DNA of 64,000 nt from a virus. Lineage: Duplodnaviria > Caudoviricetes. A program made the position numbers and the translations under genes. Every line of letters starts with the position of its first letter. Position 1 is the stretch's first letter. The DNA lies in the IMG/VR virus record IMGVR_UViG_3300008255_000098, one strand, 5' to 3'. The notes beneath the pieces were generated by a model that worked only from the letters and a program-made list of their open reading frames with translations, was not told the DNA's origin and ran no database searches. Positions 6,630 to 30,299 of the stretch are shown piece by piece.

Positions 6630-7009
6630 TGTTTATTCCAGGAGACATTGTTTCTGGGAAAACTGACACAAAGGACCTTACACCAGGACATGTGTCACGA
6701 AATCCATATGATGAAGATTTAGAAATTTTCTACTCAAAATACAAAGAGATATTGTTGGCCATAGAATATCCGGCCATAAGGTATTCAGAAAAATATAAAA
6801 ATATAATTGCAGATACCGAAGAGAGAAAAATCAAAAAAATTAAAAAGATTAATTGCAATATGGTTGGTTTGGTTGTAGAGGTCGCCGATGGCGATGGCAG
6901 TGATAACCATAAAAATGGGGTGGTTGCAGTTTTAGTCGGAGAAGAGATTTTGTGGTTTTTTTCTCATGACTTACAACTTTTAAAATTTTCTACCATAAAA
7001 ACAAAATGA
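6629..7009 (+). CDS. hypothetical protein
   Basis: 126 aa ORF translationally coupled to neighbours on both sides. Confidence 0.6.
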   Translation: MFIPGDIVSGKTDTKDLTPGHVSRNPYDEDLEIFYSKYKEILLAIEYPAIRYSEKYKNIIADTEERKIKKIKKINCNMVGLVVEVADGDGSDNHKNGVVAVLVGEEILWFFSHDLQLLKFSTIKTK

Positions 7010-7614
7010 AAAAAAATAAGAAAAAAGTGGAACGAGACCCGAATGATTTTTATGAAACACCTAACTGGTGTACAGAACGGCTCTTAGAAAAAGTATCTTC
7101 ACGTTTACAGGTTGGAAACTGGTTGGAGCCATGTGCTGGTGCAGGTGCTATAATTAGAACAATTAAAAATTCTGGGATTACTCCTAAATTTACAGCAGTT
7201 GAATTACAAGATAAATTCAAGCCATACTTAGAAAATATTATTGACCCAACAGAAGTTTTTATTACGGATTACATGACTTGGAATCCGAAGAAAAATATTA
7301 AATTTGACGTAGCTATTGGGAACCCTCCATATAAATTTGCCCAACAGGTTATAGAACATTCTATGCAACACGCAAAACAAGTTTGTATGTTGTTGCGTTT
7401 AAACTTTTTGGGTTCCGAAAAACGTTGTGAGTGGCTCAAAAAAACTAATCCTGATATTTTTATTCTTCCAAATCGGCCCTCTTTTAGAGGAAAAGGAACA
7501 GACGCAACTGAATATGCGTGGTTTTTTTGGGATGACAAATCAAACGGGAAAATTACAATTTTAGATTTGACTTCAAAACTTGTAAGGTCCGCAGAAAAAA
7601 ATCTACCAAAATAG
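7006..7614 (+). CDS. DNA amino-methyltransferase (N6-adenine/N4-cytosine)
   Basis: DFYETP, LEPCAGAG SAM-binding motif, NPPY catalytic motif. Confidence 0.85.
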   Translation: MKKNKKKVERDPNDFYETPNWCTERLLEKVSSRLQVGNWLEPCAGAGAIIRTIKNSGITPKFTAVELQDKFKPYLENIIDPTEVFITDYMTWNPKKNIKFDVAIGNPPYKFAQQVIEHSMQHAKQVCMLLRLNFLGSEKRCEWLKKTNPDIFILPNRPSFRGKGTDATEYAWFFWDDKSNGKITILDLTSKLVRSAEKNLPK

Positions 7615-10155: not shown

Positions 10156-13100
10156 ATGGCTAGTCAAATTTTTAACTTCCCAGGCTTTTTCGATAGAGAG
10201 ATAGACCTTACCGCAAGACAACAAACACCTACTGGAGTACCAGCTGGTGTTATTGGGACCTCGGAGCGTGGTCCAGCATTCGTACCATTCACTGTTGGTT
10301 CTTTTGCAGATTATAGAACAATTTTTGGGGATCTGAATGTTCGGCACAGTGCTCCTTATGCGGTTGATAAATTTTTAGAAAATCAGTCCGCACTTACCTT
10401 TGTAAGGGTTTTAGGAGCTGGGTCTAACGATACTTCCGCTGATATTGACGCTACTCGTTCTAAGGGAACAGTTAAAAATGCTGGTTTCGCTATTAGCGGA
10501 ACACTTGGAGAAGTGCCTAGCAGCCCAGCTGTTAGCCAGGGCTCTGTACAGTTTTTAGTTGCTACCCATTTTGTTTCTGGAAACGAAGCATTCGGTATGC
10601 CGATGTTCACAAATAACAACTCTACGCTCGTGACTGGTTCCGCTGACCTTGTAAACTTGGTTCGAGGTGTTATTTTTACCGCAAGCGGAACAAGAATTCA
10701 AGTTCTTGACCATGACGAAAATTATACTGAAATTGCTGATGCTATAGCAACACCCAATAGCACCACACGTTATTTCAAGATGGTAATTTCATCCTCTGCT
10801 GGTGCTAGCTTTGGAACCGATGAAGGATTTTCCGGAGTTAGAATTTACACTGCGTCTCTTAACCCAACAGATGACAACTATTTCGCAAAACTCTTGAATA
10901 CAGATCCTGAAAAGTTCGGTGATGAAAAACATCTATTGTACTCTGACTTTGCAGTTGACGCCGAGATAGCTACTTTAGAAACTGGTGCAGGAACGGTTGC
11001 AATAGCAAGCGGAAGTTCAAATACTTCTACAACAAGCGGAGACACTTCCCTTCCGTTCTTAAATGCGTTTGGAAAGTTCAACACTCGTTATACCACCCCT
11101 CGTTCTCCTTGGTTTATTTCTCAGCCATATGGACAAACTGAACATGATTTGTTTTATATTGAGGCCACCGACGATGGAGCATACGCAAACTCTCGGATAA
11201 AAGTTTCAATCACAAACATTCAAAAATCTGCAAATCCAAAAGATAAGTTTGGGACATTCAATGTTGTGGTTCGTGCTTTTGATGATACCGATGTCAATCC
11301 AAAAATTTTAGAACAGTTCAGCAGCCTAAGCTTGAATCCTGCCACAGATAAATATATTGGAAAAGTAATCGGAGATAAGAAAGCTCGATATAACTTTGAT
11401 GCTGAAAATGCTGAGGATAGACGTTTGCTTACCACAGGAATGTACGCCAACAAAAGTCGTAATATCAGAGTTATAATTTCAGATGCTGTAGCACAGGGCT
11501 CTATTCCTGCTGATGCTGTCCCATTTGGTTTCCGTGGAATTGAACTTCTAAACACCAATACACTATTAGCAGATACTACAGGTTCTTCAGGACTTGGAAC
11601 TAGCGGAAGACTTGGAATTCATGGGTCTGGGCTTAACGGAAGGCTTGAAGGAGCAATAGTTCCGCCAATCCCATTGCGCTTCAAAGTTACTCGTGGAGAA
11701 GTAGATAATACAGCGGGTGGTTTGATTGGAGAAGCTGGAATCTCTGAAGTAGCGGACGCACGTTACTTCTGGGGTGTTAAATTCACAAGAAACAACAACA
11801 ACCTAAATCCAAATATCGTAGGACTTGAGAACAAGCTTATCCGTTCGTTCACAAATTTTTCTGGTATAGAAAAACTTGATGTTTTGGTTACCGGATCTAA
11901 TAAAGATGTCTTCAACAACAACAAGTTTACTCTAGCGAGAGTTGCACTTGGCAACAGTGCTTTAGCTGATGTAACTTCATCCGTGAATAGCCACATGAAA
12001 GAAGCTGCCTATATTCGTAATGGTAGTCCTGACAGTTTTGAGTACAAAATTACTGACGGTGCGGTAGATCGTATTACTTTAGCTACTCTTTACCAGAAAA
12101 GTACCTCGGCATCAGAATTCAACAAGTTTTCTGGTTTTGCCAAGTTCACCACTTTCTTGTATGGAGGATTTGATGGTACAAACACATTAGACAAAAACTC
12201 GGCCATGCAGAATGATAGGTCAACCTCGTCTGAGACTCGTTCAACAGATGGTGAAGAAGGAAATGCTTCAAGCACATTTGTTTCTCCAGGGTTTGATGTA
12301 AACCAAAACGGCGCAGGAATCCAAAATGCTTCTGTAAACTCGTATAGGGTTGCAACAAACATCATTACTGACACAATAGCTTCTAATGTTAACATCGTTG
12401 CAGTGCCTGGGCAACGAGACCCTTTGGTAACAGATTATGTTTCAGATGCTGTTAGAGACTTTGGAATCGCATTTTATGTAATGGATATTGCTTCTTATGA
12501 CTCAAGTGCAGACCGTATTTGGGATAACGAGCCAACCAAATATATTGACGTAGAACAAACTGCAAATATTTTTGAACAACGTGCAATCGACAACGAATAT
12601 GCGGGTGCGTATTTCCCAGATGTTGTTATGGAAGATACTATCAACAGAAGAAAAGTAACTGTTCCTTCAACAATTACAGCCCTTGCTGCTCTTGGATTCA
12701 ATGATAGAGTAGCATATCCATGGTTTGCTCCTGCTGGATTCAATCGTGCGGCTCTTAATTTTGTTGATCGAGCAAAAGTACGAATTCGCCAAACAGAACG
12801 TGAGAGATTATTCTCTGTTCATATCAACCCAATAGTTAAATTCCCAGGGAACAGTGCAAATGTTATTTTTGCTCAAAATACCTTAGAACAAGCTGAAACC
12901 GCATTAGGTTCAATCAACGTAGTTAGAATGTTGAATGAGCTAAAACGCCAAGTTGCAGATATTGGAAATAGAAAAATTTGGGAGCAAATTACACCTAGCC
13001 TATATACTGATCTTGAAAAATCTTTCAGAGGAGTTCTTAACACAATTACTTCTCAGGCAGGAATCGAAAGATATGAAGTTGTTGTTGATGGAAGAAATAA

Positions 13101-13221
13101 TACAAACATTGACAGAGAAAATAACACTGTTAACGTTCGTATTGTTCTAATACCGACAAGGGCAGTTGAGTTTGTTGCTATTGATTTTGTTATCACAAGG
13201 AGCGGCGTAGAATTTAGATAA
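10156..13221 (+). CDS. gp18: tail sheath protein 1 (gp18-like)
   Basis: N-terminal FPGFFDREID...GVIGTSERGPAFVP; C-terminal WFAPAGFNRA, INPI, SINVVRML and PTRAVEFVAIDF sheath motifs. Confidence 0.9.
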   Translation: MASQIFNFPGFFDREIDLTARQQTPTGVPAGVIGTSERGPAFVPFTVGSFADYRTIFGDLNVRHSAPYAVDKFLENQSALTFVRVLGAGSNDTSADIDATRSKGTVKNAGFAISGTLGEVPSSPAVSQGSVQFLVATHFVSGNEAFGMPMFTNNNSTLVTGSADLVNLVRGVIFTASGTRIQVLDHDENYTEIADAIATPNSTTRYFKMVISSSAGASFGTDEGFSGVRIYTASLNPTDDNYFAKLLNTDPEKFGDEKHLLYSDFAVDAEIATLETGAGTVAIASGSSNTSTTSGDTSLPFLNAFGKFNTRYTTPRSPWFISQPYGQTEHDLFYIEATDDGAYANSRIKVSITNIQKSANPKDKFGTFNVVVRAFDDTDVNPKILEQFSSLSLNPATDKYIGKVIGDKKARYNFDAENAEDRRLLTTGMYANKSRNIRVIISDAVAQGSIPADAVPFGFRGIELLNTNTLLADTTGSSGLGTSGRLGIHGSGLNGRLEGAIVPPIPLRFKVTRGEVDNTAGGLIGEAGISEVADARYFWGVKFTRNNNNLNPNIVGLENKLIRSFTNFSGIEKLDVLVTGSNKDVFNNNKFTLARVALGNSALADVTSSVNSHMKEAAYIRNGSPDSFEYKITDGAVDRITLATLYQKSTSASEFNKFSGFAKFTTFLYGGFDGTNTLDKNSAMQNDRSTSSETRSTDGEEGNASSTFVSPGFDVNQNGAGIQNASVNSYRVATNIITDTIASNVNIVAVPGQRDPLVTDYVSDAVRDFGIAFYVMDIASYDSSADRIWDNEPTKYIDVEQTANIFEQRAIDNEYAGAYFPDVVMEDTINRRKVTVPSTITALAALGFNDRVAYPWFAPAGFNRAALNFVDRAKVRIRQTERERLFSVHINPIVKFPGNSANVIFAQNTLEQAETALGSINVVRMLNELKRQVADIGNRKIWEQITPSLYTDLEKSFRGVLNTITSQAGIERYEVVVDGRNNTNIDRENNTVNVRIVLIPTRAVEFVAIDFVITRSGVEFR

Positions 13222-13350: not shown

Positions 13351-16300
13351 ATGACAATTAATTTCAGCAGCGCAGGAGTTTCAGCCAGAGTTATTAACTT
13401 AACTGGCCCAACAGCAACTCAACCATTAGGAATACCAGCAGGCGTTATCGGAACTTCACAAAAAGGTCCGGCATATGTGCCAGTGACGGTAGCCACAACG
13501 CAAGATTTCACAGTTGTATTTGGGCAACCAGCAAATGATAAATCAAACGGACCTCTTTCGGTAGCAGAATGGCTTAAAACACAACAAGCTGCGACTTTTG
13601 TCAGAGTTTTAGGCTCGGGCCAGGGAAAGAAAAGAGAAACTTCTGGTGACAACCAGGGGAGAGCCATCGGTGCAGGTTTTGTTGTCGGAGATGAACAGCC
13701 TACCGCTGCTGGGGCTCTTGGTAATAATATTTATGCAAACTCCGGTGGAAGCCCTACTGGACGTTTATATTTCTTAAATGCTTTTATGTCTGAATCAAAT
13801 GGCTCTGGTGTCTTTACAGATGCTGGGCTTTTAGGCGAGGCGCAGCCGATTATTCGAGGCGTTATTATGGCAGCTTCGGGTGTTATTTTACGTCTTTCTT
13901 CTTCAATCACTGGGACAACTAACAGCACGCCGTCTCCTTCTCTGATAGCAACTGAAGAAACTGCAAGTGGCTCAAGCCTTGGTTCAATAAATCTATCTGG
14001 CGGTAGACAAGAATTTATAATGTTATTGAATGGGCATAAAGGAACTGATGAAAACTATCCAAGAGTTATTACAGCTTCTTTGGATATAGATGCGCCAAAC
14101 TATATTGGACGGTCTCTTAACACAGACCCGCTTTTGATGGAAAAAGCGGGATATATGTTGTATGCAGATTATTCTGTACATCCAAACTTAGCTGTAGTCA
14201 CTGGTTCAAATGTTTTATCAACAGTAACCATGGATAGCTTTTCGGCAGGCGTGCTGGTGGGATTAGAACCAGCCATTTTCCTATCTTCTGGCTCTCTTAC
14301 GAGAAATTCTGGTTCGGTTATTGCTCCAAGTTATGAAAATTGGGAAGATAGATTCGGGACCCCAAAATCTCCTTGGATTGTATCACAAAAGTTTGGTGGA
14401 AAGCCACAAAACTTATTTAGAATTCATGCTCTGGATGACGGAAAATGGGATAACGACAAAATAAAATGGTCAATAGAAAATCTGACACCATCTATTAGCG
14501 ACGCTAATCCATATGGAACTTTTGACCTTCTGGTTAGAAAATACAATGACACAGACAAAAACAGAGAAACGGTGGAGGCTTGGAGAAAGCTTTCTCTTAA
14601 CCCAAGCTCTGATAACTACATAGCACGAGTCATAGGAGATACACACGTTTTCTATAACTTTGATGCTGCCGAGGGTTCACAAAAAATTACCGAGACAGGA
14701 GAATATCCTAATCGTTCAAGCGTAATTCGAGTCGAAGTTGCTGGCGCAGTCGATAGTGAAGAAGTTGACAAAACAGCGTTGCCAATGGGCTTCAGAGGTA
14801 TTGCTCATCTTGTTACTTCAGGATCCGCTCCGCTTGCTTCGATGTTGGATCCTATTACAAGTGTAGTTTTTGGAACTGCTGTTGGAGATCCAGCACAGAA
14901 TGTTGTTCAAATGCCAGTTCCTTTCCGAAGTAATATCAACGTTGGGGCGGCTTCTTCGCAAAGAGCAGATAAGGGACTTTATTGGGGAGTTCAGTTCGAA
15001 AGAAAACTAAGCGTTTCAGAACAAAACTCAACTAGTGAAGCTGAAAAAAGCATATCTTCATATACCACTTACTTCCCAAATTTCCAAACAACCTATATGA
15101 ACGTAGTAGTTGATAACAACGAAGGTACTTTAGATAGCACGGCAAATGGTATACTAGATGCTGATAGATTTAACAATAACTTGTTTAGTCTTGAAAATAT
15201 CGAGATTACACAAACTGCTACTGGCACAGCAGATGCTTCAACTCTAACGAGTTGGAACTATGTTCGAAACGGAAATATCGTTGACAATGGGTCAGTTAGA
15301 GCTTTGACAGCTACAGATTTAGCAGACTCTTCAGTTAGACAGGTTGCTAAATTCAATGGTATAGTTCAAGGTGGATTTGACGGAGTACGTATCTTTGATA
15401 ACGATACAGCTGAGTTAACAAACACGGCTATTATCGAAGAGATGGACAATGCAAATCGAGGAACATCTAATGGACCGACTGTCAAAGCCTATAAAAAGGC
15501 GCTAGACGTTATTGTGGACGACACTGAAACAGATATTCAGCTATTGACTATTCCAGGTGTCAGACATCCAATTATTACGGATGATGCAATAATCAAAGTT
15601 GAGGAACGTTTCGATGCTATGTATATCATGGACCCAATAGTATATGATACTACAAATACATTAGTTACGGCTTCTTCCCAGGACATCAGTGTTACTTACA
15701 CAGCAAATAACCACAGGGATAGAGGAATTAATTCTTCTTTCGCAGCTGCGTATTTCCCAGATGTAATCATTAGAGATGCACAAAATAATGTAACAAGACA
15801 AGTTCCTCCGTCAGTTGCCGTTCTTGGAGCATTTGGCTTAAACGACTCAGTAGGACACCCATGGTTTGCTCCTGCTGGCTTTGCCCGAGGAGCTTTGTCT
15901 AGCGCAGAACAAACTGTCCTGTCACTGACTCGTGCAAACATGAATAGCCTACAAGACGTAAAGATTAACCCGTTGGTTACTTTCGCTGGATCTAATGGAG
16001 TAACTGTTTGGGGGCAACGAACACTTCTTGGAAGTGACAGTGCCCTTGAAAGAGTAAGTGTTAGAAGATTGTTGATTAGCTTGCGTAGACAGGTTAAACA
16101 AGTTTCTAGAAGATTTGTTTTTGAGCAAGGCAGAGCAGAAACACTTGCAAGATTCTCACAACTTGTAAATCCAATTCTCAAAAAGGTTCAAGACCAAAAT
16201 GGTCTTGAGAAATTCCTTGTAAGAATTGACACTTCTACCACCACACAAGCGGACGTTGAAAACAGAACGATAAGAGGACAAATATTCTTAGTTCCTACAA

Positions 16301-16368
16301 AGACCTTGGAATTCTTGTCAATAGATTTTGCTGTGACAAACCAAGCAACATTTGTTTCTAGTATCTAG
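13351..16368 (+). CDS. gp18: tail sheath protein 2 (gp18-like paralog)
   Basis: SAGVSARVINL...GVIGTSQKGPAYVP; WFAPAGFARG, VWGQRTL, VRRLLI and PTKTLEFLSIDF motifs. Confidence 0.9.
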   Translation: MTINFSSAGVSARVINLTGPTATQPLGIPAGVIGTSQKGPAYVPVTVATTQDFTVVFGQPANDKSNGPLSVAEWLKTQQAATFVRVLGSGQGKKRETSGDNQGRAIGAGFVVGDEQPTAAGALGNNIYANSGGSPTGRLYFLNAFMSESNGSGVFTDAGLLGEAQPIIRGVIMAASGVILRLSSSITGTTNSTPSPSLIATEETASGSSLGSINLSGGRQEFIMLLNGHKGTDENYPRVITASLDIDAPNYIGRSLNTDPLLMEKAGYMLYADYSVHPNLAVVTGSNVLSTVTMDSFSAGVLVGLEPAIFLSSGSLTRNSGSVIAPSYENWEDRFGTPKSPWIVSQKFGGKPQNLFRIHALDDGKWDNDKIKWSIENLTPSISDANPYGTFDLLVRKYNDTDKNRETVEAWRKLSLNPSSDNYIARVIGDTHVFYNFDAAEGSQKITETGEYPNRSSVIRVEVAGAVDSEEVDKTALPMGFRGIAHLVTSGSAPLASMLDPITSVVFGTAVGDPAQNVVQMPVPFRSNINVGAASSQRADKGLYWGVQFERKLSVSEQNSTSEAEKSISSYTTYFPNFQTTYMNVVVDNNEGTLDSTANGILDADRFNNNLFSLENIEITQTATGTADASTLTSWNYVRNGNIVDNGSVRALTATDLADSSVRQVAKFNGIVQGGFDGVRIFDNDTAELTNTAIIEEMDNANRGTSNGPTVKAYKKALDVIVDDTETDIQLLTIPGVRHPIITDDAIIKVEERFDAMYIMDPIVYDTTNTLVTASSQDISVTYTANNHRDRGINSSFAAAYFPDVIIRDAQNNVTRQVPPSVAVLGAFGLNDSVGHPWFAPAGFARGALSSAEQTVLSLTRANMNSLQDVKINPLVTFAGSNGVTVWGQRTLLGSDSALERVSVRRLLISLRRQVKQVSRRFVFEQGRAETLARFSQLVNPILKKVQDQNGLEKFLVRIDTSTTTQADVENRTIRGQIFLVPTKTLEFLSIDFAVTNQATFVSSI

Positions 16369-16387
16369 TCTTTTACAAATATCTAAG

Positions 16388-16417
16388 TAAAGCGGCGAAC
16401 AGCCGCTTTATTTTTTT
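16388..16417 (+). terminator. intrinsic terminator after the sheath operon
   Basis: TAAAGCGGC-GAACA-GCCGCTTTA followed by a T run. Confidence 0.8.
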
Positions 16418-16450
16418 AATATTTCTTTTATTTTGAAAATTTATAAAACA

Positions 16451-16606
16451 GGGCGTGAAACCCCATCCATCGGGTGGGATGTTAAAAAAGCGGGTGGACT
16501 TGTGAATCTTGTGATAGGAAGTATTAACATATTGTTTCTGGTGAAGCTTCACCAATTTGTGATTGTTGCAAAATAATTGTATCTTTACAAAAAATCAGAC
16601 TATTTA
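16451..16606 (+). mobile_element. tnpB-element left end remnant ending in a late-promoter motif
   Basis: GGGCGTGAAACCCCATCCATCGGGTGGGATG hairpin like the other left ends; GACTATTTA at a similar spacing as in 7658 and 26423 copies. Confidence 0.6.
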
Positions 16607-16625
16607 CTAACTGAATAAGGAATCT

Positions 16626-17261
16626 ATGAAACTTACAAAATCTCAACTTAATACTTTGGTTAGGCAAGCTATTCGCAAATCTCTCAATGAAACAATGAGA
16701 TTTCCAAAAAACTCAACCAAAGTAAATGACCAAAATGACGTTGGTATGTCAAAAAATGATTTATCAGCACACCTCTCCGCTGAACGTGAAAAAAAGCAAA
16801 GAAAAGATGTTCAACAACGTAGAGCTTCAATGCGCAATACTTCTCGTGGCATGGAGTTGGAAAGCGGATGTGAACTTACTGAGGACCAACACGAAGGGCG
16901 TGAAGATTACTTAAAAAAGCTTCGTAGTGCTGGTTGGGACGATACAGAAATTTTAGAAGAGTTAGTTCTGGCTATGTCAAACTCTGAGGCCACAGAAAAC
17001 TTTAAGTATATTTTAGACAAGTGGGAACACAACGGTGAGGAACCAGAAAGAGAAGAGTTGGTGGGCAAGGAAGTGCCTGCCGCCGATGGCAGCGACTACG
17101 GATTTCGAATTCTTAATTTTCTCCCAGACACCGACGATTACACGGGACAAATCATCACTTGGAGCACAGGCGTTCCAAGCGAACAGACGACTAGAGAGAT
17201 AGACGCCTTCAAATTGTCCTACCGTTATATACCGGGGAAGGCCAGGAAGTCCAGAGTTTAG
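16626..17261 (+). CDS. hypothetical virion protein with class I leader
   Basis: MKLTKSQLNTLVRQAIRKSLNE leader. Confidence 0.7.
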   Translation: MKLTKSQLNTLVRQAIRKSLNETMRFPKNSTKVNDQNDVGMSKNDLSAHLSAEREKKQRKDVQQRRASMRNTSRGMELESGCELTEDQHEGREDYLKKLRSAGWDDTEILEELVLAMSNSEATENFKYILDKWEHNGEEPEREELVGKEVPAADGSDYGFRILNFLPDTDDYTGQIITWSTGVPSEQTTREIDAFKLSYRYIPGKARKSRV

Positions 17262-17401
17262 CGGGTATCTTGTGAATGCGCTTTGTTGAACTCAATGCAA
17301 AAAATGTATGAAGGAAATGAATATTGTCGTCGGCGGAAAATGGTTCGAAATATGGCCAAAACACATTAGGCACATCATCACCAAAAAGAAAAGCTAAAGA
17401 C

Positions 17402-17439
17402 TTAGCAGACTCTTCAGTTAGACAGGTTGCTAAATTCAA
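17402..17439 (+). repeat. 38-nt exact intergenic copy of sheath-2 coding sequence (15319-15356)
   Basis: TTAGCAGACTCTTCAGTTAGACAGGTTGCTAAATTCAA occurs at both positions. Confidence 0.9.
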
Positions 17440-17487
17440 CGATACAAGAGTCTCAACTAGTTAATAAAGAAAGCAAAAGAAAAGATT

Positions 17488-17715
17488 ATGAAAGTTACAA
17501 AATCCCAAATTAAAGAAATGGTTCGTGCCGCCGTCAGAAAACAACTCACTGAAGCTAGTTCTGGGGTTGAGGTAAAAAATGTTATGATTGATGTTTTACG
17601 AGATAGTGGTATGACAGATACTGATATTCTTACACAACTCGTAGCTGCATTAGATGACCAAAGTGTTCGAGTAGCTCTAGGAACGTTAGTTGGTCAAGCA
17701 CAAAGCAAAAAATAA
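17488..17715 (+). CDS. small virion protein with class I leader
   Basis: MKVTKSQIKEMVRAAVRKQLTE leader; body similar to the middle of 16626 (LRDSGMTDTDILTQLV vs LRSAGWDDTEILEELV). Confidence 0.7.
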   Translation: MKVTKSQIKEMVRAAVRKQLTEASSGVEVKNVMIDVLRDSGMTDTDILTQLVAALDDQSVRVALGTLVGQAQSKK

Positions 17716-17967
17716 ATGAAAATATCAAAGGCGCAGCTAGAAAATCTAATAAAAGAAGCAGTCAAAAAACAATTAGATGAATCTGTCTCCGTTGGAGAAA
17801 TTGAAAACAGAATTGCAAGACTTGATAGGCATAGGCTAGAAAACAATCTTAGTGTTTATGAAATTTTAGAAGACGTATTGGAGCAGATTGACAATGAAAC
17901 CTGGGAAGCGATCTTAAAAGGAATAAATTATAAATACGGAATATCAAACAAAAACAATTCGATATAA
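17716..17967 (+). CDS. small virion protein with class I leader
   Basis: MKISKAQLENLIKEAVKKQLDE leader. Confidence 0.7.
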   Translation: MKISKAQLENLIKEAVKKQLDESVSVGEIENRIARLDRHRLENNLSVYEILEDVLEQIDNETWEAILKGINYKYGISNKNNSI

Positions 17968-18001
17968 GTACAGTATATTATAAGTTTAGCAGGGAAATTT
18001 T

Positions 18002-18463
18002 ATGAAATTAGATAGAACACAGTTTAAAAAGGTTTTAAAGGAATGTATGCGAGAGTTAATTGACGAAGGTGCATTTAGTAACGTAATGAAAGAAAGTAAC
18101 TTCCGTCAAGAAGCTTCTAACGAACGCCCAGCCGCAAATGATTTTGTTGCTTCGAGCCAAGTCGGAAATTCTTCTCCGAATGATCGACTTAAAGAAATTT
18201 CTAGAGCTGCCGCTGCTCAGATTTCAAAAGGGGATCCTAAATCTCGTGCAATGATGGAAAGTATTTTTGAAGACACTGCTCGCACAACGTGGCAAAGACA
18301 AATGGAAGCTGAGCGTGGCGGTACAGGACAAGATGAGGTCTATGTTGGCGACGAAACAAGTGCAGAAGTCAATGCACAAGAGATGGCTATGTTAGATGTG
18401 TTAAGTGGTGGCCGTGGGGCTCAACATTGGGCAGCTGTTGCACTTGGGAAAACAAATAAGTAA
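18002..18463 (+). CDS. putative head-assembly/core protein with class I leader
   Basis: MKLDRTQFKKVLKECMRELIDE leader; upstream of scaffold and MCP. Confidence 0.65.
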   Translation: MKLDRTQFKKVLKECMRELIDEGAFSNVMKESNFRQEASNERPAANDFVASSQVGNSSPNDRLKEISRAAAAQISKGDPKSRAMMESIFEDTARTTWQRQMEAERGGTGQDEVYVGDETSAEVNAQEMAMLDVLSGGRGAQHWAAVALGKTNK

Positions 18464-18579
18464 AATCATTTTTTGTGAATTTTTCTTTTAAAAATATAAT
18501 AAAATCATTTTTCGTGAATACTTCTACGACTAAACTATTTCTAGCGAATATTTACACCATGTAAGGAAACTAATTTATC

Positions 18580-19059
18580 ATGCCTAACCATCACCAACTT
18601 GTAATAGACGCCCCGGTAACAACTCGGGGCTCAGGAAGATCGAGTACGACAGATCTTCTTATAGCTTATCCAGCTTCTCCGACTAACACCCTAAGTGATG
18701 CAGATATTAAAGACCTTTTCATAAACACTGTTTTAGCACAAGCAACTGGTGGAATTGTTAATGATGGCGGACATACTTTCGGCGAAGTAGCAATTGATTA
18801 TGCTGCTGCCCCAAATATTGAAGAAGTTGTCGTTGGCGGCGCAGGGCTCCCTGGCAATCCACATGCTCCAAACATTGTTTCTCCAGGCGAGGGCGTAGAC
18901 CCAACAACTATGCCAGATGGAAGCGCAATTACTTTGGCGGCAAAGGGCCAAGGCGGACCATTCCCAGGATATGTCGGTGGCGACAATCCTAGTGTAACAA
19001 GCGCAAATGTTACTCCACTTACTATTGGCAGTCTTTCGGGTCACGGACACACGGCTTAA
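18580..19059 (+). CDS. Gly/Pro-rich hypothetical virion protein
   Basis: 159 aa; TATTTA at 18549 and an SD-like AAGGA upstream; directly before the scaffold. Confidence 0.65.
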   Translation: MPNHHQLVIDAPVTTRGSGRSSTTDLLIAYPASPTNTLSDADIKDLFINTVLAQATGGIVNDGGHTFGEVAIDYAAAPNIEEVVVGGAGLPGNPHAPNIVSPGEGVDPTTMPDGSAITLAAKGQGGPFPGYVGGDNPSVTSANVTPLTIGSLSGHGHTA

Positions 19060-19073
19060 TCAAGGAATATTTC

Positions 19074-21374
19074 ATGACAGACTTGTATACAGAGGCACTA
19101 AAAGATGCACAAAAAATTCGAGAGATTGCAGAAACTGATGCAAAAAATCGTCTCGTAGAAGCACTTACGCCGTACATCAAAAAAGTAATCGCAAAAGAAG
19201 CAGCTGGCGACAGTGACTTTTATTTTGAACAAAACGATAATCCAGAAGATGATGAAGATGCTCTTGATTTAAATAATCCGACAGATGTTCCAGCAGCAGT
19301 TGCACCACAAGCACCAGTTCCGGAAGGTCAGCCTTCTTCTCAAGCAGGAACTGCACCACAAGCACCACAAACAACACCAGGGCTTACTGTAAACTCTACG
19401 CCAACAGATGTGATGGGTGATGAAGCAACTACCCTCCCTATTAAAACACCAGGGTCAGAAGAACTTGTAAATGGTTCAATGCCAGATTCTGACGGCAAAA
19501 TTACTGTTGACTTCGAAGATTTATTTGTCAATGGAACCTCTGACCAAGTTACTATAACCCCGCAGGGGCAAATGGCTCCAATGGAAGCCCCTGTAGCCCC
19601 TACAGGGGGCGAAGAAGTTTCTCCTGGGCTTGGGGTTGATAAAACCTTAAATACTGGTAACGAGCCTCCAGTGGCAAATGGTGAGCCACTTGAGCCACTT
19701 GAGCCAACAGAAGACGAAGAACAACTTGATCTTTCGACGAAAGAGTCAATCAACTATAAAGATTATAAAAGAGTTTTTTCAAATATCTCAGAGAGAATTG
19801 ATATGACTCTTTACAAAGATAAAGTTTCAAATATAGTATTTGAAACCCTTAAACAACGGTTATTTGATTTACTGGAGGCAGTAGATACAATGAGAGACCG
19901 TGGAACTATTTCAGGTAAGCAAGCACAATTAAACGAAAACAAATTAGAATTTTTGTTTATAAAGCTGAAAGAGGCGAGTTTGCATAATAGTTACTCTAGT
20001 AATGGAAATAAAGGCCCAGATATGACAACCCTTAAAGAATTCGCAGCACAACTTTTTGAAGAAGATGAAAATCTTGCAAAAGATTCGGTTAGTAGTGGTA
20101 AAACCGGCGTTCCGGTTGATGAAGAATATTCAGCCCACGCAGCAAAAGTTTCTGGTGTAGACCCGAAGCTCGGTGGAGCTAAAGATATCAAGGTTTCGCA
20201 AAGTAAACATCTTGGTAAGGGTGAAGCTCTTCCAGATAGTTCAGACCCTGACGAAAAACCTTGGGGTGAAGGTTCACCAACAGTAAATGAAAATAGCGCA
20301 GTTGGCCTTGATGACACAGACGAAAAGCCATCTGACGAATTTGAAGTTGACGATGCAGAGCTTGCTGAAGCAGTAAGATCTATTCGAAAAGAAAGCATCA
20401 AGAAAAAGCTTTCAGCACTCCGTGAAGCTGAGAAAAAAGAAGGACTCAACGTTGAGACTTCAGAAGACTATCCAGATCCAGGCCCTGAGGGTGGCGAAGA
20501 CCCATCTCACGATAAACTTAAGGAAATGTTAGAAATGAGAATGAACGAAATGATGGATGAACAAGACGATGATGACAACGACGAAGACGAAGATATGTCA
20601 AAAGTTCTCGACGATGACGAAATGTCTGTTGAAGATGATTTAGATTCTGACGAAGAACTCCCAGAGGACGAAGACGCTGATTTAGTTCTTTCAATAGACT
20701 TGCCACCAGAAGTTGAAAAAGAGTTAGCAACTCTAGGTCTTGATGACCTCGATGTGGATGTTGCTCTTAATGTTTCTACAGACCTCGACGACGACGAAGA
20801 AATAGAAATTTCTGACGAAGACGAAGACGAAGACGAAGACGATGCCGAAATGCCTGAAGAAGAAGTTCTTGAGGACGAGTATATGGGCGGGGTAGACGAA
20901 ATGAAAGAAATGAAAAAAATGAAAAACGAAGCGAAAAGACAAGCTAACAAAGCAAAGCTTCTAGAAAAAAAGCTTCAAAAAGCAGTACGACTTCTTCGTT
21001 TACAAAATAATAAGCTTACTAACCTTGAGGAACAATTAGTTGAAACTAATCTGTTTACTTCAAAGGCAGTATATTACAGCAAGTTCCTCCAAAGGGCACT
21101 TACTGAAAAGGCTCTAAGCAAGAAAGCGTTACAACAAATTGTAGAGCACCTTGACAAGGGTCGATCGGTTGCTGAAACAAAAGCAATCTATAAGAAAATT
21201 GAGAATAAGCTCAATGAACATGCAAATGCTTCCCGCAAATTGGGCGGTTCTTCCTCGAAGGTGACCAGACCAGGGAGCGCAAACTTGAATGAGAGTGCAA
21301 ATTCTCAAACAAGGAATGATCCGGAAACTCAATCCAGCAATCGCTGGCAGCTTCTTGCAGGCATTAAAAAATAA
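19074..21374 (+). CDS. prohead core scaffolding protein (gp22-like)
   Basis: very acidic, many LxE sites, C-terminal coiled coil ending RWQLLAGIKK, immediately upstream of the MCP. Confidence 0.75.
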   Translation: MTDLYTEALKDAQKIREIAETDAKNRLVEALTPYIKKVIAKEAAGDSDFYFEQNDNPEDDEDALDLNNPTDVPAAVAPQAPVPEGQPSSQAGTAPQAPQTTPGLTVNSTPTDVMGDEATTLPIKTPGSEELVNGSMPDSDGKITVDFEDLFVNGTSDQVTITPQGQMAPMEAPVAPTGGEEVSPGLGVDKTLNTGNEPPVANGEPLEPLEPTEDEEQLDLSTKESINYKDYKRVFSNISERIDMTLYKDKVSNIVFETLKQRLFDLLEAVDTMRDRGTISGKQAQLNENKLEFLFIKLKEASLHNSYSSNGNKGPDMTTLKEFAAQLFEEDENLAKDSVSSGKTGVPVDEEYSAHAAKVSGVDPKLGGAKDIKVSQSKHLGKGEALPDSSDPDEKPWGEGSPTVNENSAVGLDDTDEKPSDEFEVDDAELAEAVRSIRKESIKKKLSALREAEKKEGLNVETSEDYPDPGPEGGEDPSHDKLKEMLEMRMNEMMDEQDDDDNDEDEDMSKVLDDDEMSVEDDLDSDEELPEDEDADLVLSIDLPPEVEKELATLGLDDLDVDVALNVSTDLDDDEEIEISDEDEDEDEDDAEMPEEEVLEDEYMGGVDEMKEMKKMKNEAKRQANKAKLLEKKLQKAVRLLRLQNNKLTNLEEQLVETNLFTSKAVYYSKFLQRALTEKALSKKALQQIVEHLDKGRSVAETKAIYKKIENKLNEHANASRKLGGSSSKVTRPGSANLNESANSQTRNDPETQSSNRWQLLAGIKK

Positions 21375-21400
21375 GTAACGGAAAATAGCTTTTAGGCAAA

Positions 21401-21406
21401 TACTTA
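21401..21406 (+). promoter_or_regulatory. putative late promoter motif TACTTA for the MCP
   Basis: 24 nt upstream of the MCP ATG, followed by a GAGG SD. Confidence 0.55.
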
Positions 21407-21430
21407 GAGAAAGATTTAGAGGATATTAAA

Positions 21431-23353
21431 ATGAGTACATTTACACTGTCACAGTTGGCAGAAGGCGTTCAAAGGCGTTCCCTTGGAACAGACACTCCAC
21501 GTATAACAAGGAAATGGGCTGCCACGGGCCTTCTTGAGAACCTTACAGGGGTCAATCGTGATAACATGTCACGACTTCTTGAAAACCAAGTGGTTGAGCT
21601 TCTTAGGGAGACAAACGCATTATCTACTGGTGGAGCAGGACTTTCGTCAAGCGGAAAGGTAGCTGGTTTTACCAATGTTGCCTTCCCAATTGTTCGTAGA
21701 GTTTTCGCAGGCTTGATTGCAAACGAAATCGTTTCAGTTCAGCCTATGTCTCTACCAACGGGTCTTTTGTTCTACCTTGATTACTCCTATGGTTCGTCCG
21801 TCGGTGGTGATGCAGGTTCAACAGCAAACCAATTTTCAACGACATCTATTGTTGATCCTTCGACTTATACCAGTCAAGACTCAGTTTACAACAACCCACG
21901 TGGTTCTGGTGTTCGTTCGGGATCACTTGCAACAGGTGGTCAATACGACCTTGCTGGACATGGTTATTCCAAGGTCCACAAACAAGCAAAGAACCTTTTA
22001 TCCACCGCTGATAGCGTTGGTTATTGGGCAGGTGGTTCCACCTGGACCGCAGCTGGTACAGTTGCTTCTTCCGCAGATTTCGCTGGTTTCAACGCACGTT
22101 ATGCAATGTATGACGCAACCGTTGAAAACGATGTAACTGATGGACTTCTTGATTATACTTTCGTATTTGTTAGCGCATCACAGTTCACCACCAACATCGG
22201 CGGCGCAGATCTTGACAATGTAAACCAAGTTGCTCTTACGGGCTTTGGTGCTGCAACTCAATCCGCTGTAGAGTGGGGCGAGAAATATCAAGGCGGACGA
22301 GGAGTTCTAAACCTTCGTAAGCTCAACCAAAGAGGAAATTGGGATTCAGCCACTGGCTTGTTCTCCCCAGACCCTTTGAACGGCTCGCATCTTATGTTTG
22401 TTGTGCGTCTTGCTAACGCAGGTACAGCACCGACCCTAACGGCTGTTGTCGGTAACGAGGTAACAGCTTCCGCTGCTATCGCAGACGCACTCAGCGTAAA
22501 CTCTGATGGTTCAACCCTTACGATTCCAAGCTTCGAGTCTAACTTCGCAGTTGACGCAAGCCCACGTATCCCAGAAGTTGATATCCGTATCGAGTCAACA
22601 GCTGTAACCGCTCAGAGCAGAAAGCTCAGAGCCCGTTGGTCACCAGAAATGGCGCAGGATCTTACCGCATTCTACAGCATTGATGTAGAAGTCGAGCTTA
22701 CAAACATTCTCTCCGAGATGATTACGCTTGATATCGACCGTGAAATCTTGAACGACCTTCTTACACAAGCAGGAGCAGCAAATCTCTTCTGGAGCCGTGC
22801 CCCAGGAAAGATTGTAAACAAGTTCACTGGCGCTGAGGCCCTCCAGTCCAGCACATTGAGCCCTGGCCCGATGGCATTCGTAAACATCCAAGATTGGTAC
22901 CAGACTCTTCTTGAAACCGTTACCGATGCTGCAAACACCATCCACAGAAAGACACTTCGTGGTTCCGGTAACTTCATTGTTACAAGCCCTGATGTCTGCA
23001 CAATCATTGAGCATCTTGTTGCTTACAAGCCTTCCTACAGAGTAGACGCTGATGGACAGGTACGAGACAACATGGTAGTTGGTGCCGAAGCTGTAGGTAC
23101 TTTGAACAATCGTTACACGATTTACAAGGACCCTTACTTCCCAAGCAACAAGCTTCTTGTAGGTTTGAAGGGTAACACCTTCCTTGAGTCCGGATTTATT
23201 TACGCACCATACGTACCTCTTATCTTGACGCCTGTCATCTACGCACAGGAGGACTTCACTCCACGTAAGGGTGTCATGACTCGATACGGAAAGAAGATGG
23301 TCAGAAATGATTTCTACGCAACCGTAACAGTATTAGATATGGGTCTGATTTAA
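21431..23353 (+). CDS. gp23: major capsid protein (T4 gp23 family) with large insertion
   Basis: KWAATGLLE, FPIVRRVF, VSVQPMSLPTGLLFYLD, SRKLRARWSPEMAQDL, IYAPYVPL and PRKGVMTRYG motifs. Confidence 0.95.
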   Translation: MSTFTLSQLAEGVQRRSLGTDTPRITRKWAATGLLENLTGVNRDNMSRLLENQVVELLRETNALSTGGAGLSSSGKVAGFTNVAFPIVRRVFAGLIANEIVSVQPMSLPTGLLFYLDYSYGSSVGGDAGSTANQFSTTSIVDPSTYTSQDSVYNNPRGSGVRSGSLATGGQYDLAGHGYSKVHKQAKNLLSTADSVGYWAGGSTWTAAGTVASSADFAGFNARYAMYDATVENDVTDGLLDYTFVFVSASQFTTNIGGADLDNVNQVALTGFGAATQSAVEWGEKYQGGRGVLNLRKLNQRGNWDSATGLFSPDPLNGSHLMFVVRLANAGTAPTLTAVVGNEVTASAAIADALSVNSDGSTLTIPSFESNFAVDASPRIPEVDIRIESTAVTAQSRKLRARWSPEMAQDLTAFYSIDVEVELTNILSEMITLDIDREILNDLLTQAGAANLFWSRAPGKIVNKFTGAEALQSSTLSPGPMAFVNIQDWYQTLLETVTDAANTIHRKTLRGSGNFIVTSPDVCTIIEHLVAYKPSYRVDADGQVRDNMVVGAEAVGTLNNRYTIYKDPYFPSNKLLVGLKGNTFLESGFIYAPYVPLILTPVIYAQEDFTPRKGVMTRYGKKMVRNDFYATVTVLDMGLI

Positions 23354-24167: not shown

Positions 24168-24566
24168 ATGGCATTTACAAAAAATAGATTTCAAAAGTTA
24201 GCTGGGATTCTTAAAGAAAGTAAAAAACCTATAAATGAAGAGTTAGATGCTCCTAGAGATTTCTCAGAACTTCAAGATTGGCTAGACAGACGGCCAGGCG
24301 TTTCTGCTAAGGTTGCAAAATTGATTGAAGAAGAAGAAGACGAATCCAAAGCAGCAGAATGGTTGCTTACTAACTTCGACTATGATCTATCAATGTGGTC
24401 CGGAAAGGAATTAGTAGAATTTTTAGAACAATATACAACTTCTAATGATGAACACGACGACGATGACTACGATGATAGAATGGATGGGGATTTTGACAGT
24501 GCCATGGCCTCCGCTGGATTTGGTACCGATGAAGACTATGGTTTTAGCGGCGGGGAAGATTGGTAA
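24168..24566 (+). CDS. acidic virion protein with class II (RFQKLAGI) leader
   Basis: MAFTKNRFQKLAGILKE; C-terminal DGDFDSAMASAGFGTDEDYG; TACTTA at 24128. Confidence 0.7.
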   Translation: MAFTKNRFQKLAGILKESKKPINEELDAPRDFSELQDWLDRRPGVSAKVAKLIEEEEDESKAAEWLLTNFDYDLSMWSGKELVEFLEQYTTSNDEHDDDDYDDRMDGDFDSAMASAGFGTDEDYGFSGGEDW

Positions 24567-24571
24567 AAAAC

Positions 24572-25072
24572 ATGTTTAATAAAAAAAGATTTCAAAAATT
24601 AGCAGGTATCCTAGTTGAAGGAACACACACTGGTGAAAAATATAGACATAACAAAGTTTACAACGTCATAAAACATAAAATGTCACAATTCTTAGAAGAA
24701 AAAGGCGACGACGTTAATGAAGTTATAGTAGAAACTATGAAAGATGCAATGGAAAACTCTCGTGGGGAGGAGCTTGATCACAGATCCTTCAGTGCTGATG
24801 ATTTTCTTGGAGAATCAGATATAACAGAAATGTTTCTAAAATTTCTAGGTAATCAATATCTTGTTGACGTATTAAATGGAGATGATGAAAGTCAGGCGGC
24901 GGCGGAAAATCACCAGGCAGCTTGGGATGCGGCCTACGAAGCTATGAATGAATGGCTAGAAAAAGTATCCTATGATGATTTCCAAGTTGCACTTGAAGAC
25001 ATAAGAGACAGTGAAGAACTTGCTAGAGACCCAAATGGCTATTATGGTGTTTCTGATAAAGATTTTTATTAG
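24572..25072 (+). CDS. acidic virion protein with class II leader
   Basis: MFNKKRFQKLAGILVE; C-terminal RDPNGYYGVSDKDFY. Confidence 0.7.
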   Translation: MFNKKRFQKLAGILVEGTHTGEKYRHNKVYNVIKHKMSQFLEEKGDDVNEVIVETMKDAMENSRGEELDHRSFSADDFLGESDITEMFLKFLGNQYLVDVLNGDDESQAAAENHQAAWDAAYEAMNEWLEKVSYDDFQVALEDIRDSEELARDPNGYYGVSDKDFY

Positions 25073-27269: not shown

Positions 27270-28384
27270 ATGGATTCACTTTTAAAAAAACTTATTAGAA
27301 GAGAAGTTAGAAGAATAATTTCCGAACAAGACATCGACGATGTATTTGGAAACCATTTATGGGCAGATAAAAATGAATTTCCAAAAGAGAGAACTAAACA
27401 GTTTAATGAACCAAACACGGACTTAGAAAAAAAGTTCTTTACTGTTCTCGAAGATTATATTGAAGGGATTCTACACTTGGAGAGCCGGGGTCTGACGCCA
27501 TGGGGGAATTTATTAAAAATGTTTTACGCCCACTTAAAGTACTGAATAAATTTCCTGAATATATCAACCCACCTAAAAATATAGTTTTCAGGGGCATGAG
27601 TAACCTTTCTTTAAAAACGGCGACAAAGATACTTGGAATTTCTGAAAAAGAGCTTATTTCAATGTCTGGTGTTTCGCAAAAAATAGCTGTTAGTTCGACT
27701 GTATACCCGATCAACGAAACTATGTCTTGGTCAAGTAACAAAGATATACCAACCGCATTTTCATACTTTGGTGGAAATGGAACCGATGAAACTCATGTGA
27801 GTATTATTATGTTGGCTAATCTATATGATTCAGGTAATGATTTTTACTTGAATATTAATAATATTGCGCAGAATTATTCAGGTTTTCCATCATTAGCTGG
27901 CAAAGAGGGAGAAACACTTTCTATCGGACCAGTTAAAATTCACGCAGCATATGTATATGTTGTAAACTTAAGAAAAGAAATAGAGGACGAAAGAAAGAGT
28001 TTCAGCGCATTATTACCAGAACTAATATCAAAAATTTCTGCCGAAGAAATCAAAAAAGATCAAGATGAGAGCGAGTCAGCAAAAGGGAATAAAATAATAT
28101 TCAATAAACTTAATAAGGCTTTCACCGAAATTTTCCAAAAATATAATCTAAAGATAAAACAAATAGATAGTTTTGTTAATTCAGTTTTATATTTTATCTC
28201 AAATGTTCGATTACCTAAAAGTTCTTTCAGCGACGATGAAACACTTGAAACACTTGAAACACTTGAAACACTTGAAACGCATCTAATTGATTCATTCGAA
28301 GATCAAATACCTGATTTATTTCAAATATTTGAAATAGAACAAGGAGAAATTGAAAAATTTGAAGAGTTTGTCAAAAAGAACTAA
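27270..28384 (+). pseudogene. R-S-E clade ADP-ribosyltransferase-like protein with leader, split by a -1 frameshift at a G5 run (~27502-27506)
   Basis: MDSLLKKLIRREVRRIISE leader; adding one G joins ...TPWGEFIKNV to IVFRG / MSWS / EGE motifs; paralog of 3609. Confidence 0.65.
28238..28279 (+). repeat. 9-bp tandem repeat (GAAACACTT)4+ encoding ETL repeats
   Basis: direct reading; in frame within the ART-like C-terminal tail. Confidence 0.9.
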
Positions 28385-29199
28385 ACTTCTTGCAATATTG
28401 CTCTTATTGTTTCTTGGATTATAGCAGCTAAGCTACGCCGAGCTTCTCTGATTTCTGGCTGTTCTACTTCAAAAGTACCAGTTATTTTTGGAGGATTTTT
28501 AACGGCCTTCCAAATATACCACGTAACTGCTTGCAGTCCTTGAGGAGTTAATCCAACCAAGTCAGCAACTTTCATATAATCTTGAATTATAGCTTTACGT
28601 TCAACTTTCGTTGGGGAACTCATATTTTTAAGTGGAGTTTTAATTCCACGCCAAACATTTATTGCGTGTCCATCCAACACTAACTCATTTTGGACTTTTT
28701 CTGGGTTCATCAAGGAATCAAAGAATACCGACACTTTTGGACCGTTAACATATCCAATATTGCCAGTATTTAAAATTTTCATTGCTTTGCGAACATTAGT
28801 TTTATATGCAGGAATTCCACTAGGTTCTTCTATTCCGTCTTCCCAGGCTTTCATAACACGGTCGGCAGACATAAGATTTAATTTCCAGCTCAAATTTGGG
28901 CTCAACACTGCGCATACCGCAGCAGAAACTGGGACAGGAATATCATATTTTGTCGCCAACTCTTTTACATGCCCGTGAGCATATTGATACCAGTTACTCC
29001 AATAGTCGATTTCTTCTTTTGATGCTTTTTTAAGCACAGCCAAAATATTGTGAGATCCTTCATTTTTAAACAGATTCATTTCTTCATGAGGAATTTTTTT
29101 CCTACCTGGTTCGTTCATTACATAGTCAGCATTATGTGCGTTTGTAGAATATTCTTCTTGTTCGAAAAGGAACTCTAGGAGTTTACTGAAAGATTTCAT
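28381..29199 (-). CDS. DUF7178-like protein (predicted HhH-GPD glycosylase-like fold) with leader
   Basis: WY..A, AVLSPNLSW..N, GPKV..F, LDGHA and QAVTW motifs recalled for this phage family; TATTTA 6 nt upstream on the minus strand. Confidence 0.55.
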   Translation of the reverse strand: MKSFSKLLEFLFEQEEYSTNAHNADYVMNEPGRKKIPHEEMNLFKNEGSHNILAVLKKASKEEIDYWSNWYQYAHGHVKELATKYDIPVPVSAAVCAVLSPNLSWKLNLMSADRVMKAWEDGIEEPSGIPAYKTNVRKAMKILNTGNIGYVNGPKVSVFFDSLMNPEKVQNELVLDGHAINVWRGIKTPLKNMSSPTKVERKAIIQDYMKVADLVGLTPQGLQAVTWYIWKAVKNPPKITGTFEVEQPEIREARRSLAAIIQETIRAILQEV

Positions 29200-29729: not shown

Positions 29730-30299
29730 ATGGCATTTTTAAAAGAACGATTGCAAAAATTAGCAGGGATTACCAATCCACAGATGTTGACAGAATCAGC
29801 ACGCCCATACGATGATGAGGCGAAAAAAATGATACATGATGTACCTGCTTATTTACGTGCTATTCATCTTTGGTTTCATGGCGCTCACCACACCACCCGA
29901 GGCGCTGACTTCGCTGGCGATCATGCCTATCTCTATACAAGAATTTACACTGAGGTCCAAGATGAAGTAGATGGAGCCATAGAAAAAGCGATAGGCGTCA
30001 CTGGTGAACAACGTATGGCATGTCCGAAATGTTTAACAGAACATGCAGTTGAGATTCTTGGAAAATATGCAAATCCCCCGGAGTTAGAACCACGGGATAT
30101 TGCAAAAGAAGGTCTTCATATGATTGAAGACTATATTTCAATGATAGAACACACCTTCAAGGTGTTGGAAAGCAAAGGAATGCTTACCCTCGGAATGGAT
30201 GACCAACTTGCGGCTTCGGCAAACACACATGAAACATACGTATATTTATTGAAGCAACGAGTCCGAAGTTATGACGATGTTTCACAAAACTTGTTATAA
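29730..30299 (+). CDS. Dps/ferritin-like protein with class II leader
   Basis: MAFLKERLQKLAGI...LTE; HLWFHGAHH...FAGDH..LY...Y...DGAIEK and HETYVYLLKQ ferroxidase-type pattern. Confidence 0.75.
   Translation: MAFLKERLQKLAGITNPQMLTESARPYDDEAKKMIHDVPAYLRAIHLWFHGAHHTTRGADFAGDHAYLYTRIYTEVQDEVDGAIEKAIGVTGEQRMACPKCLTEHAVEILGKYANPPELEPRDIAKEGLHMIEDYISMIEHTFKVLESKGMLTLGMDDQLAASANTHETYVYLLKQRVRSYDDVSQNLL

Follow-up and report, generated by a model that had tools for sequence, protein, structure and literature searches.

Why should the head scaffold protein of a phage end in the very peptide with which five unrelated proteins of the same phage begin? The question is raised by a 64-kilobase (kb) stretch of DNA (64,000 nucleotides of IMG/VR virus record IMGVR_UViG_3300008255_000098; hereafter the window), whose source is a large, AT-rich (36.5% GC) phage distantly related to T4. 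Just upstream of the gp23-family capsid gene, a very acidic open reading frame (ORF) of 766 residues, which we assign as the head scaffold, has NRWQLLAGIKK as its C-terminus (ending ...SSNRWQLLAGIKK-stop), and the + strand at 21342-21374 reads R-W-Q-L-L-A-G-I-K-K-stop. On the same strand, five further ORFs carry R[WFL]xxLAG[IV] five to six residues after the ATG, and their bodies have no family in common. We propose that R-[WFL]-x-x-L-A-G-[IV] is probably a portable, protease-removable prohead-docking peptide common to the scaffold and to cargo proteins. The copies in the window are as follows.

19074-21374, + strand: head scaffold protein, 766 residues, positional equivalent of T4 gp22, assigned by synteny and composition
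21342-21365, + strand: core motif RWQLLAGI of the scaffold tail, then KK and the stop codon (to 21374)
24168-24566, + strand: tagged ORF 1, about 132 residues, acidic; leader MAFTKNRFQKLAGILKE, motif at 24186-24209, predicted cut after L-K-E17; no Pfam family
24572-25072, + strand: tagged ORF 2, about 166 residues; leader MFNKKRFQKLAGILVE, motif at 24587-24610, predicted cut after L-V-E16; no Pfam or PHROG family
29730-30299, + strand: tagged ORF 3, 189 residues; leader MAFLKERLQKLAGITNPQMLTE, motif at 29748-29771, predicted cut after L-T-E22
34909-35718, + strand: tagged ORF 4, 269 residues; leader MNIKDRWMKLAGITPKSPTKSKQNLKE, motif at 34924-34947, predicted cut after L-K-E27
35724-36308, + strand: tagged ORF 5, 194 residues; leader MNFSSNRWKQLAGVLKE, motif at 35742-35765, predicted cut after L-K-E17

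A peptide shared by the scaffold end and five protein starts

A first-pass annotation had described the scaffold as ending in RWQLLAGI and five cargo genes as starting with related peptides, and both descriptions were confirmed by translation, by coordinates and by shuffle counts. When the window was read in six frames, R[WFLM]xxLAG[IV] was found six times, against an expectation of 0.02 from nucleotide shuffles and of 0.009 from residue shuffles of all ORFs. All six copies lay on the + strand within real ORFs, and five of them stood no more than 17 residues from the ORF start, where 0.002 were expected. Synonymous codons varied among the copies (R as CGC, AGA, CGA, CGT or AGG; L as CTT or TTA; G as GGC, GGG or GGT; those for A varied also), which argues for selection on the peptide and not for a DNA repeat.

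Four of the five tagged proteins have no function that could be recognised. Tagged ORF 3 is weakly Dps/ferritin-like (PHROG_3636, E 4.8e-5; DUF5856 below cut-off), tagged ORF 4 has a homologue with the same tag in relative L027 and no family, and tagged ORF 5, also without a family, has an SSNRW identical to that of the scaffold. Language-model and structure look-ups of two tagged ORFs returned unnamed viral clusters only.

Conservation of the scaffold tail

Eighty IMG/VR loci were found with the capsid protein, at capsid identities of 51-88%. In nearly all of them the ORF upstream of the capsid gene ends in [DE]RW[AQ]xLAG[IL]xK. An equivalent tail was present in the huge-phage record LR756508 (SRMQKLADIS), in Microcystis phage Mel-JY01 (ERMKKLAGIVK) and in Flavobacterium phage immuto (SRWQKLAGIIK). 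In an alignment of 25 diverse scaffold C-terminal regions, the R and A of the motif were invariant, W, L and G were kept in at least 90%, and the tail was the best-conserved element of the whole region. Weaker tails were seen on the equivalent gene of Rhodothermus phage RM378 (ERIKRLAGL), jumbo phage CBB (ISRNAGISKNR), RsoM2USA (ARLKELGGVN) and LR756511 (TLKTLAGRKAK).

A separate IMG/VR scan for DNA encoding RFQKLAGI gave at least 119 loci, with the position of the motif listed for 80; among these the motif was C-terminal in 74. Of at least 109 ORFs with a C-terminal motif, at least 102 were immediately followed by a gp23-family gene.

The motif is short, with six fixed positions, and such a peptide might be shared by chance resemblance or survive as an inert remnant of gene-end recombination. 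This explanation is to be weighed against the number of copies in the window, which far exceeds the shuffled expectation and is written in different codons, and against the fixed or nearly fixed residues of the 25 scaffolds, the roughly 145 distinct tails and the recurrence of the motif in several lineages and in cultured phages. Its probability is accordingly close to nil.

Capsid-protein columns that covary with deviant tails (candidates G12 and K386) were also considered and left unused, because the deviant tails cluster in few lineages and phylogeny confounds the signal.

Identity of the scaffold gene

The scaffold begins with a conserved helical domain (LYEEALAD.K.LKE.AE.NAK...), which together with the gene arrangement is common to all 80 relatives; after it come a middle part that is long, acidic and of low complexity, a C-terminal coiled coil, a disordered linker and, last, the tail. 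It holds 20 L/I-x-E sites, whereas shuffled versions held 11.9 +/- 3.0 and reached at least 20 in 18 of 2000 shuffles. For the last 210 residues, AlphaFold2 with the 25-sequence alignment predicted long helices. The scaffold assignment follows from gene position, the conserved N-terminal domain, these predicted helices and the excess of L/I-x-E sites.

Like T4 gp22 (PHROG_237), this scaffold is encoded directly upstream of the equivalent of gene 23, is acidic and helical, and is rich in L/I-x-E sites; unlike T4 gp22, which has 269 residues, it is 766 residues long, and it could not be matched to gp22 significantly by sequence or profile. Neither it nor the related scaffolds matched a Pfam or PHROG family, and its database homologues are all unnamed. 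PHROG_237 recognises the gp22 of T4 and of P-HM2 and none of the present clade. Homology to T4 or cyanophage gp22 was therefore not accepted, as hhalign gave E values of 0.13 and 0.67, which are not significant; the T4 alignment, over 35 columns, falls on the LT..QK...VE.LD block of gp22 and is suggestive at most. The ends of T4 gp22 (...SVYAKVASRF) and P-HM2 gp22 (...AYVQQLAKRL) resemble RWAKLAGIK only loosely.

The motif on non-scaffold proteins of other phages

In total, 21 distinct N-terminal tags were collected from this and other lineages. The close relatives L004, L027, G003 and G004 (86-88% capsid identity) carry MTTKKRWQRLAGILTE, MVTTKARLQKLAGIINE, MTNKKRWQKLAGV... and MTEFSKKRWGKLAGI..., along with others, and the record LR756508 has two N-terminal tags. 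A scan for ER[LF]QKLAGI gave 18 matches, 12 of them N-terminal and typically of the form MKKxLxER[FL]QKLAGI, one being on a 519-kb contig. In the cultured phage immuto, in full vB_FspM_immuto, which infects Flavobacterium sp. LMO8, two annotated coding sequences, immuto35A_42 and immuto35A_187, start with MKKQILSEQF[KR]RMQ[FK]LAGIITE. The motif also stands at the C-terminus of non-scaffold proteins, in L039/L040, L041, L052, L004 and L158. The first-pass annotation had suggested that cargo leaders mimic the C-terminal peptide of the scaffold, and this part of its proposal is strongly supported by the conservation of the tail, by the unrelated proteins bearing the motif in several lineages and by the flanking cut sites described below.

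Two proteins (L039:11999-12811 and L041:7906-8931) bear a tag at each end, namely an N-terminal leader of the MKLTKSxL type and a C-terminal ERWQ[RK]LAG[IL][VI]K. In L039 the gene follows immediately downstream of the capsid gene; the L041 protein has a DGHHRW (ParB/sulfiredoxin-like) motif. Such double-tagged proteins could bridge two receptors.

The N-terminal leader of these proteins is of a second leader class, MK-[LIV]-[TS]-K-[SA]-Q-L..L[VI]..A[VI]RK.L.E, which in the window was found on + strand ORFs starting at 16626, 17488, 17716, 18002 and 26801. Several of the small ORFs that separate the sheath gene from the scaffold bear it, as do ORFs elsewhere; each such leader closes with L-x-E about 22 residues in, and the class bears no resemblance to the scaffold tail. 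At about 132370 of G001 (the contig of L009), a leader of this other class runs into an LAGI core (MKKSELATLVREAVLAGIEE), which may make it a hybrid between the two types.

A motif-like stretch (NRVNLLAGVLNE) in the acidic C-terminal extension of the portal protein L081:2868-4988 was set aside, being absent from 43 other portals and probably isolated. The C-terminus of T4 Alt showed no tail-like motif.

Protease-type sites beside the motif

The motif peptide looks removable, since a protease-type site lies between it and the body of the protein. Among 144 distinct tails, 123 (85%) have [LIVM]-x-E two to nine residues before the motif, most commonly at a spacing of five to six residues, as compared with 39.5% at random positions of the same proteins. 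On the N-terminal tags, [LIVM]-x-E follows the motif within 2-20 residues in 21 of 21 cases, often immediately (LAG-I-L-K-E); for tagged ORFs 1-5 the predicted leaders would be 17, 16, 22, 27 and 17 residues long. Cleavage after L/I-x-E is the signature of the T4 protease gp21 (PMC9026906). On the scaffold and the capsid protein the corresponding features are these.

21294-21371, + strand: predicted releasable 26-residue C-terminal peptide of the scaffold, after its last L-x-E site (L-N-E740)
21431-23353, + strand: major capsid protein of the gp23 family, 640 residues (Pfam PF07068, E 6.6e-78; PHROG_138)

The capsid protein has a conserved N-terminal propeptide that ends in L-[KR]-E60, and E60 is kept in 79 of 80 relatives. 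T4 gp23 loses a propeptide of 65 residues, and the capsid L-[KR]-E60 lies at the equivalent place. In most relatives the genes run in the order portal, protease (Peptidase_S77), scaffold and capsid, and a Peptidase_S77 gene adjoins the scaffold in L005, L016, L039, G001 and G002. The conserved capsid site, taken with the S77 protease of the relatives, suggests that the lineage matures like T4; the multiple protease sites of the scaffold predict that it would be degraded at maturation.

Could the motif simply be a recognition or exosite element, which marks substrates of the prohead protease for a cut at the adjacent L-x-E and has no part in docking? Its place next to [LIVM]-x-E would fit, and the scaffold and all tagged proteins would then be substrates of the protease. 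On the other hand, L-x-E sites without the motif are found in the capsid protein and in many proteins of the MK-[LIV]-[TS]-K-x-Q-L... leader class, the scaffold has its 20 L/I-x-E sites and a single motif, and for T4 gp21 the short L/I-x-E signature is enough (PMC9026906). We regard this explanation as improbable.

Still less probable, in our judgement, is that function lies in the released peptides themselves, for instance as small basic internal peptides kept in the head, with no role in targeting. The peptide is indeed basic and bounded by a cut site, and T4 heads keep some scaffold-derived fragments (gp22*; PMC9026906). Such a role, however, leaves unexplained why each unrelated protein has one copy, placed at either terminus, and why the scaffold copy sits at the position which other phages use for shell binding.

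The surroundings of the head genes gave some further observations. Compared with L005, L039, L002 and L003, the head module of the window (13351-23353) is rearranged, and sheath genes and small leader-bearing ORFs precede the scaffold. Two large tail-sheath-like genes stand in tandem at 10156-13221 (1021 residues) and 13351-16368 (1005 residues); the latter matches PHROG_23 and the former matches weakly, to the sheath C-terminal domain. Accessory genes lie at 2614-3510, 5575-6057, 7006-7614, 28381-29199 (- strand) and 39810-41834 (- strand). Pfam matches among the accessory genes were to a family X (Pol beta-like) DNA polymerase, a TnsA-like endonuclease domain, an Eco57I-like methylase domain and DUF7178; an RNA-ligase-like domain was below the Pfam cut-off.

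Shape of the tail and candidate receptor

In the AlphaFold2 model of the 210-residue C-terminal fragment, confident long helices are followed by a disordered Gly/Ser-rich linker (predicted local distance difference test score, pLDDT, under 50) and then by a tail helix, ...SSNRWQLL. This helix spans residues 194-205 of the fragment (through L205), AGIKK is non-helical, and the mean pLDDT of the tail is about 74. The peptide thus stands at the very C-terminal end of the scaffold, set off from the rest by a flexible linker. Most tags have a hydrophobic moment of 0.4-0.5, but the window's own scaffold tail reaches only 0.13.

As the peptide is used at either terminus, its receptor site should need no free carboxylate and should be open at both ends of the helix. 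The N-terminal region of T4 gp23 is thought to face the core. The scaffold tail and the capsid propeptide are both conserved yet disposable. In all resolved HK97-fold systems with a separate scaffold, 80alpha included, the scaffold contacts the capsid protein at its N-terminal region (PMC9546572). We give the inner face of the capsid protein, or its N-terminal propeptide region, nearly an even chance of being the receptor, and the scaffold core itself one that is only slightly smaller; what chance is left falls to a site elsewhere.

That the peptide docks on the scaffold core and not on the capsid protein also has to be considered as a mechanism of its own. In that case the tail would make a scaffold-to-scaffold contact, for example with the N-terminal helical domain of a neighbour, and tagged proteins would co-polymerise through it. 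Several observations fit: the internal proteins of T4 enter the core before the shell is built, are described as having core affinity and co-purify with gp22, and naked T4 cores form without gp23 (PMC9026906). The scaffold N-terminal domain, being strongly conserved in all relatives, could be the partner of the equally conserved tail. Against such a contact stand the capsid contacts of the resolved HK97-fold scaffolds just mentioned and the predicted helix-and-hook, basic character of the present tail. We consider docking on the core a serious possibility, although a doubtful one.

The capsid protein, which the first-pass annotation had named as the receptor of the peptide, is thus one candidate; the core affinity described in T4 (PMC9026906) fits a scaffold-core receptor equally well. 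The P22 scaffold, with which the annotation drew its analogy, is unrelated.

Proposed mechanism and its weak points

The mechanism that we favour, a removable docking peptide common to scaffold and cargo, would work as follows. The scaffold bears the peptide at its extreme C-terminus, behind the flexible linker and an L-x-E site; five small unrelated proteins bear it N-terminally, ahead of an L-x-E site, and in the relatives it is found at one end or the other of further proteins. As the prohead assembles, the peptide, a short, basic, amphipathic helix ending in a hook, would fill one receptor site, whatever protein bears it, so that tagged proteins would be built into the interior of the shell along with the scaffold. 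Cutting of the flanking L/I-x-E sites by a prohead protease of the gp21 type (S77) would follow and dissolve the link. The cut would free the scaffold for degradation, its fragments leaving the head, and the cargo bodies would stay free inside.

Several points weigh against this mechanism. Docking, packaging and cleavage of the tagged proteins are steps that we infer from the sequences, and the scaffold identity of the 766-residue ORF itself is drawn from synteny and composition. Neither a prohead protease nor a portal gene was found within the window, and the contigs of the nearest relatives, which are fragments, likewise showed no protease gene; an S77 protease is expected in this genome because more distant relatives encode one. 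In most relatives at about 55% capsid identity, N-terminal tags were not seen within 10 kb of the capsid gene, and a 189-kb contig of one such lineage, scanned entire, had none. The use of the motif on cargo may thus be patchy, common in this subclade and sporadic elsewhere. A complex prediction with the 640-residue capsid protein and scaffold residues 722-766 returned no answer and counts neither for nor against binding.

Comparison with known systems

The nearest parallel is the capsid targeting sequence (CTS) of the T4 internal proteins IPII and IPIII. There too, short N-terminal leaders on unrelated proteins of a gp23-type phage end at an L/I-x-E (gp21-type) site, and the CTS leader of head-internal proteins is sufficient to package foreign proteins (Mullaney and Black 1996, reviewed in PMC9026906 and PMC9958956). 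The present tags differ in sequence from the T4 CTS (MKTYQEFIAE) and share with the IPII/IPIII leaders only the hydrophobic-x-E end. Moreover, the CTS is known only N-terminally and has no reported match to the C-terminus of gp22, whereas the present peptide also ends the scaffold and occurs at either end of proteins.

A structural parallel is offered by phage 80alpha, in which the end of the scaffold, an 11-residue amphipathic helix with a five-residue hook (RIIK), lies against the N-arm of the capsid protein, as seen by cryo-electron microscopy (Dearborn 2017, PMC5644958). The CpmB protein of SaPI1 copies this helix and hook and competes for the site on the capsid protein (PMC5644958). Like these, the present tail is predicted to form a helix and then about five non-helical residues with hydrophobic and basic side chains. 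The differences are that a parasite makes CpmB, as an alternative scaffold and not as cargo, and its copy is C-terminal only; that 80alpha belongs to a different capsid lineage, whose scaffold is not degraded by a protease in the T4 manner; and that binding was seen there by cryo-electron microscopy, whereas here the shape is predicted.

A non-scaffold protein also enters the procapsid by way of the shell-binding end of the scaffold in herpesvirus UL26/UL26.5, in lambda C/Nu3 and with the HK97 protease tail, where the shared ends come from nested in-frame genes or are specific to the protease. Here, unlike in those cases, a short motif has been dispersed over many unrelated genes and has reached the opposite terminus too, and the protease of the relatives is without it. 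In phage P1, comparably to what is proposed here, an N-terminal signal of 30 residues or fewer loads cargo into a myovirus head, and the inner face of the capsid protein is a place where P1 cargo can be located; P1, however, lacks a separate scaffold, and a motif shared with a scaffold is not described for it. The ingredients, namely the T4 CTS, shell binding by scaffold C-termini, the mimicry by CpmB and proteases that share a scaffold tail, are thus already known. In the searchable literature, the coverage of which is incomplete, we found neither this motif described nor any case of a T4-type phage in which the scaffold tail serves again as an N-terminal leader on cargo. Searches for 'KLAGI' gave unrelated text only, and those for virion data of immuto or Mel-JY01 gave nothing useful.

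An extended reading and what the finding means

A wider reading, which we offer as speculation and think rather unlikely to hold in full, is that cargo loading in the T4 superfamily copies the scaffold's own disposable ends: the LAG handle would be ancient and would dock on the capsid protein's N-terminal propeptide, and the T4 CTS would be a copy of the gp22 N-terminus. The LAG tail would then be the handle of scaffolds from RM378 and CBB to this phage, perhaps surviving in T4 as ...YAKVAS..., and a peptide of 8-12 residues at either terminus would compete with the scaffold for sites and so bring a protein into the head.

When T4 sequences were compared (gene 22 in L086; ipII and ipIII in L248), the CTS, MKTYQEFIAE|A, and the start of gp22, MLKEQLIAE|A, were seen to be similar (Q-x-hydrophobic-I-A-E-A, allowing one gap), though over a short stretch that takes in the cleavage consensus. 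It may be, then, that the cargo leaders of T4 are copies of the scaffold's N-terminal propeptide.

The mechanism of the CTS, and with it the sorting of proteins into the T4-type prohead core, is described as still 'mysterious' (PMC9958956). A peptide shared by scaffold and cargo provides a specific hypothesis for this step, namely competition for one site and then proteolytic release. Hundreds of uncultured phages conserve the peptide, and a cultured Flavobacterium phage has it too, so that the hypothesis is directly testable. The tail would mark the scaffold genes of a large clade in which they are otherwise unrecognisable, having no Pfam or PHROG family, and the tag would predict accessory genes whose products are packaged in the capsid and probably injected. 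A tag of 8-12 residues that is usable at either terminus would also help to load proteins into phage capsids. Were the extended reading true, the long-sought mechanism of the CTS would be at hand, together with a two-ended, programmable loading tag.

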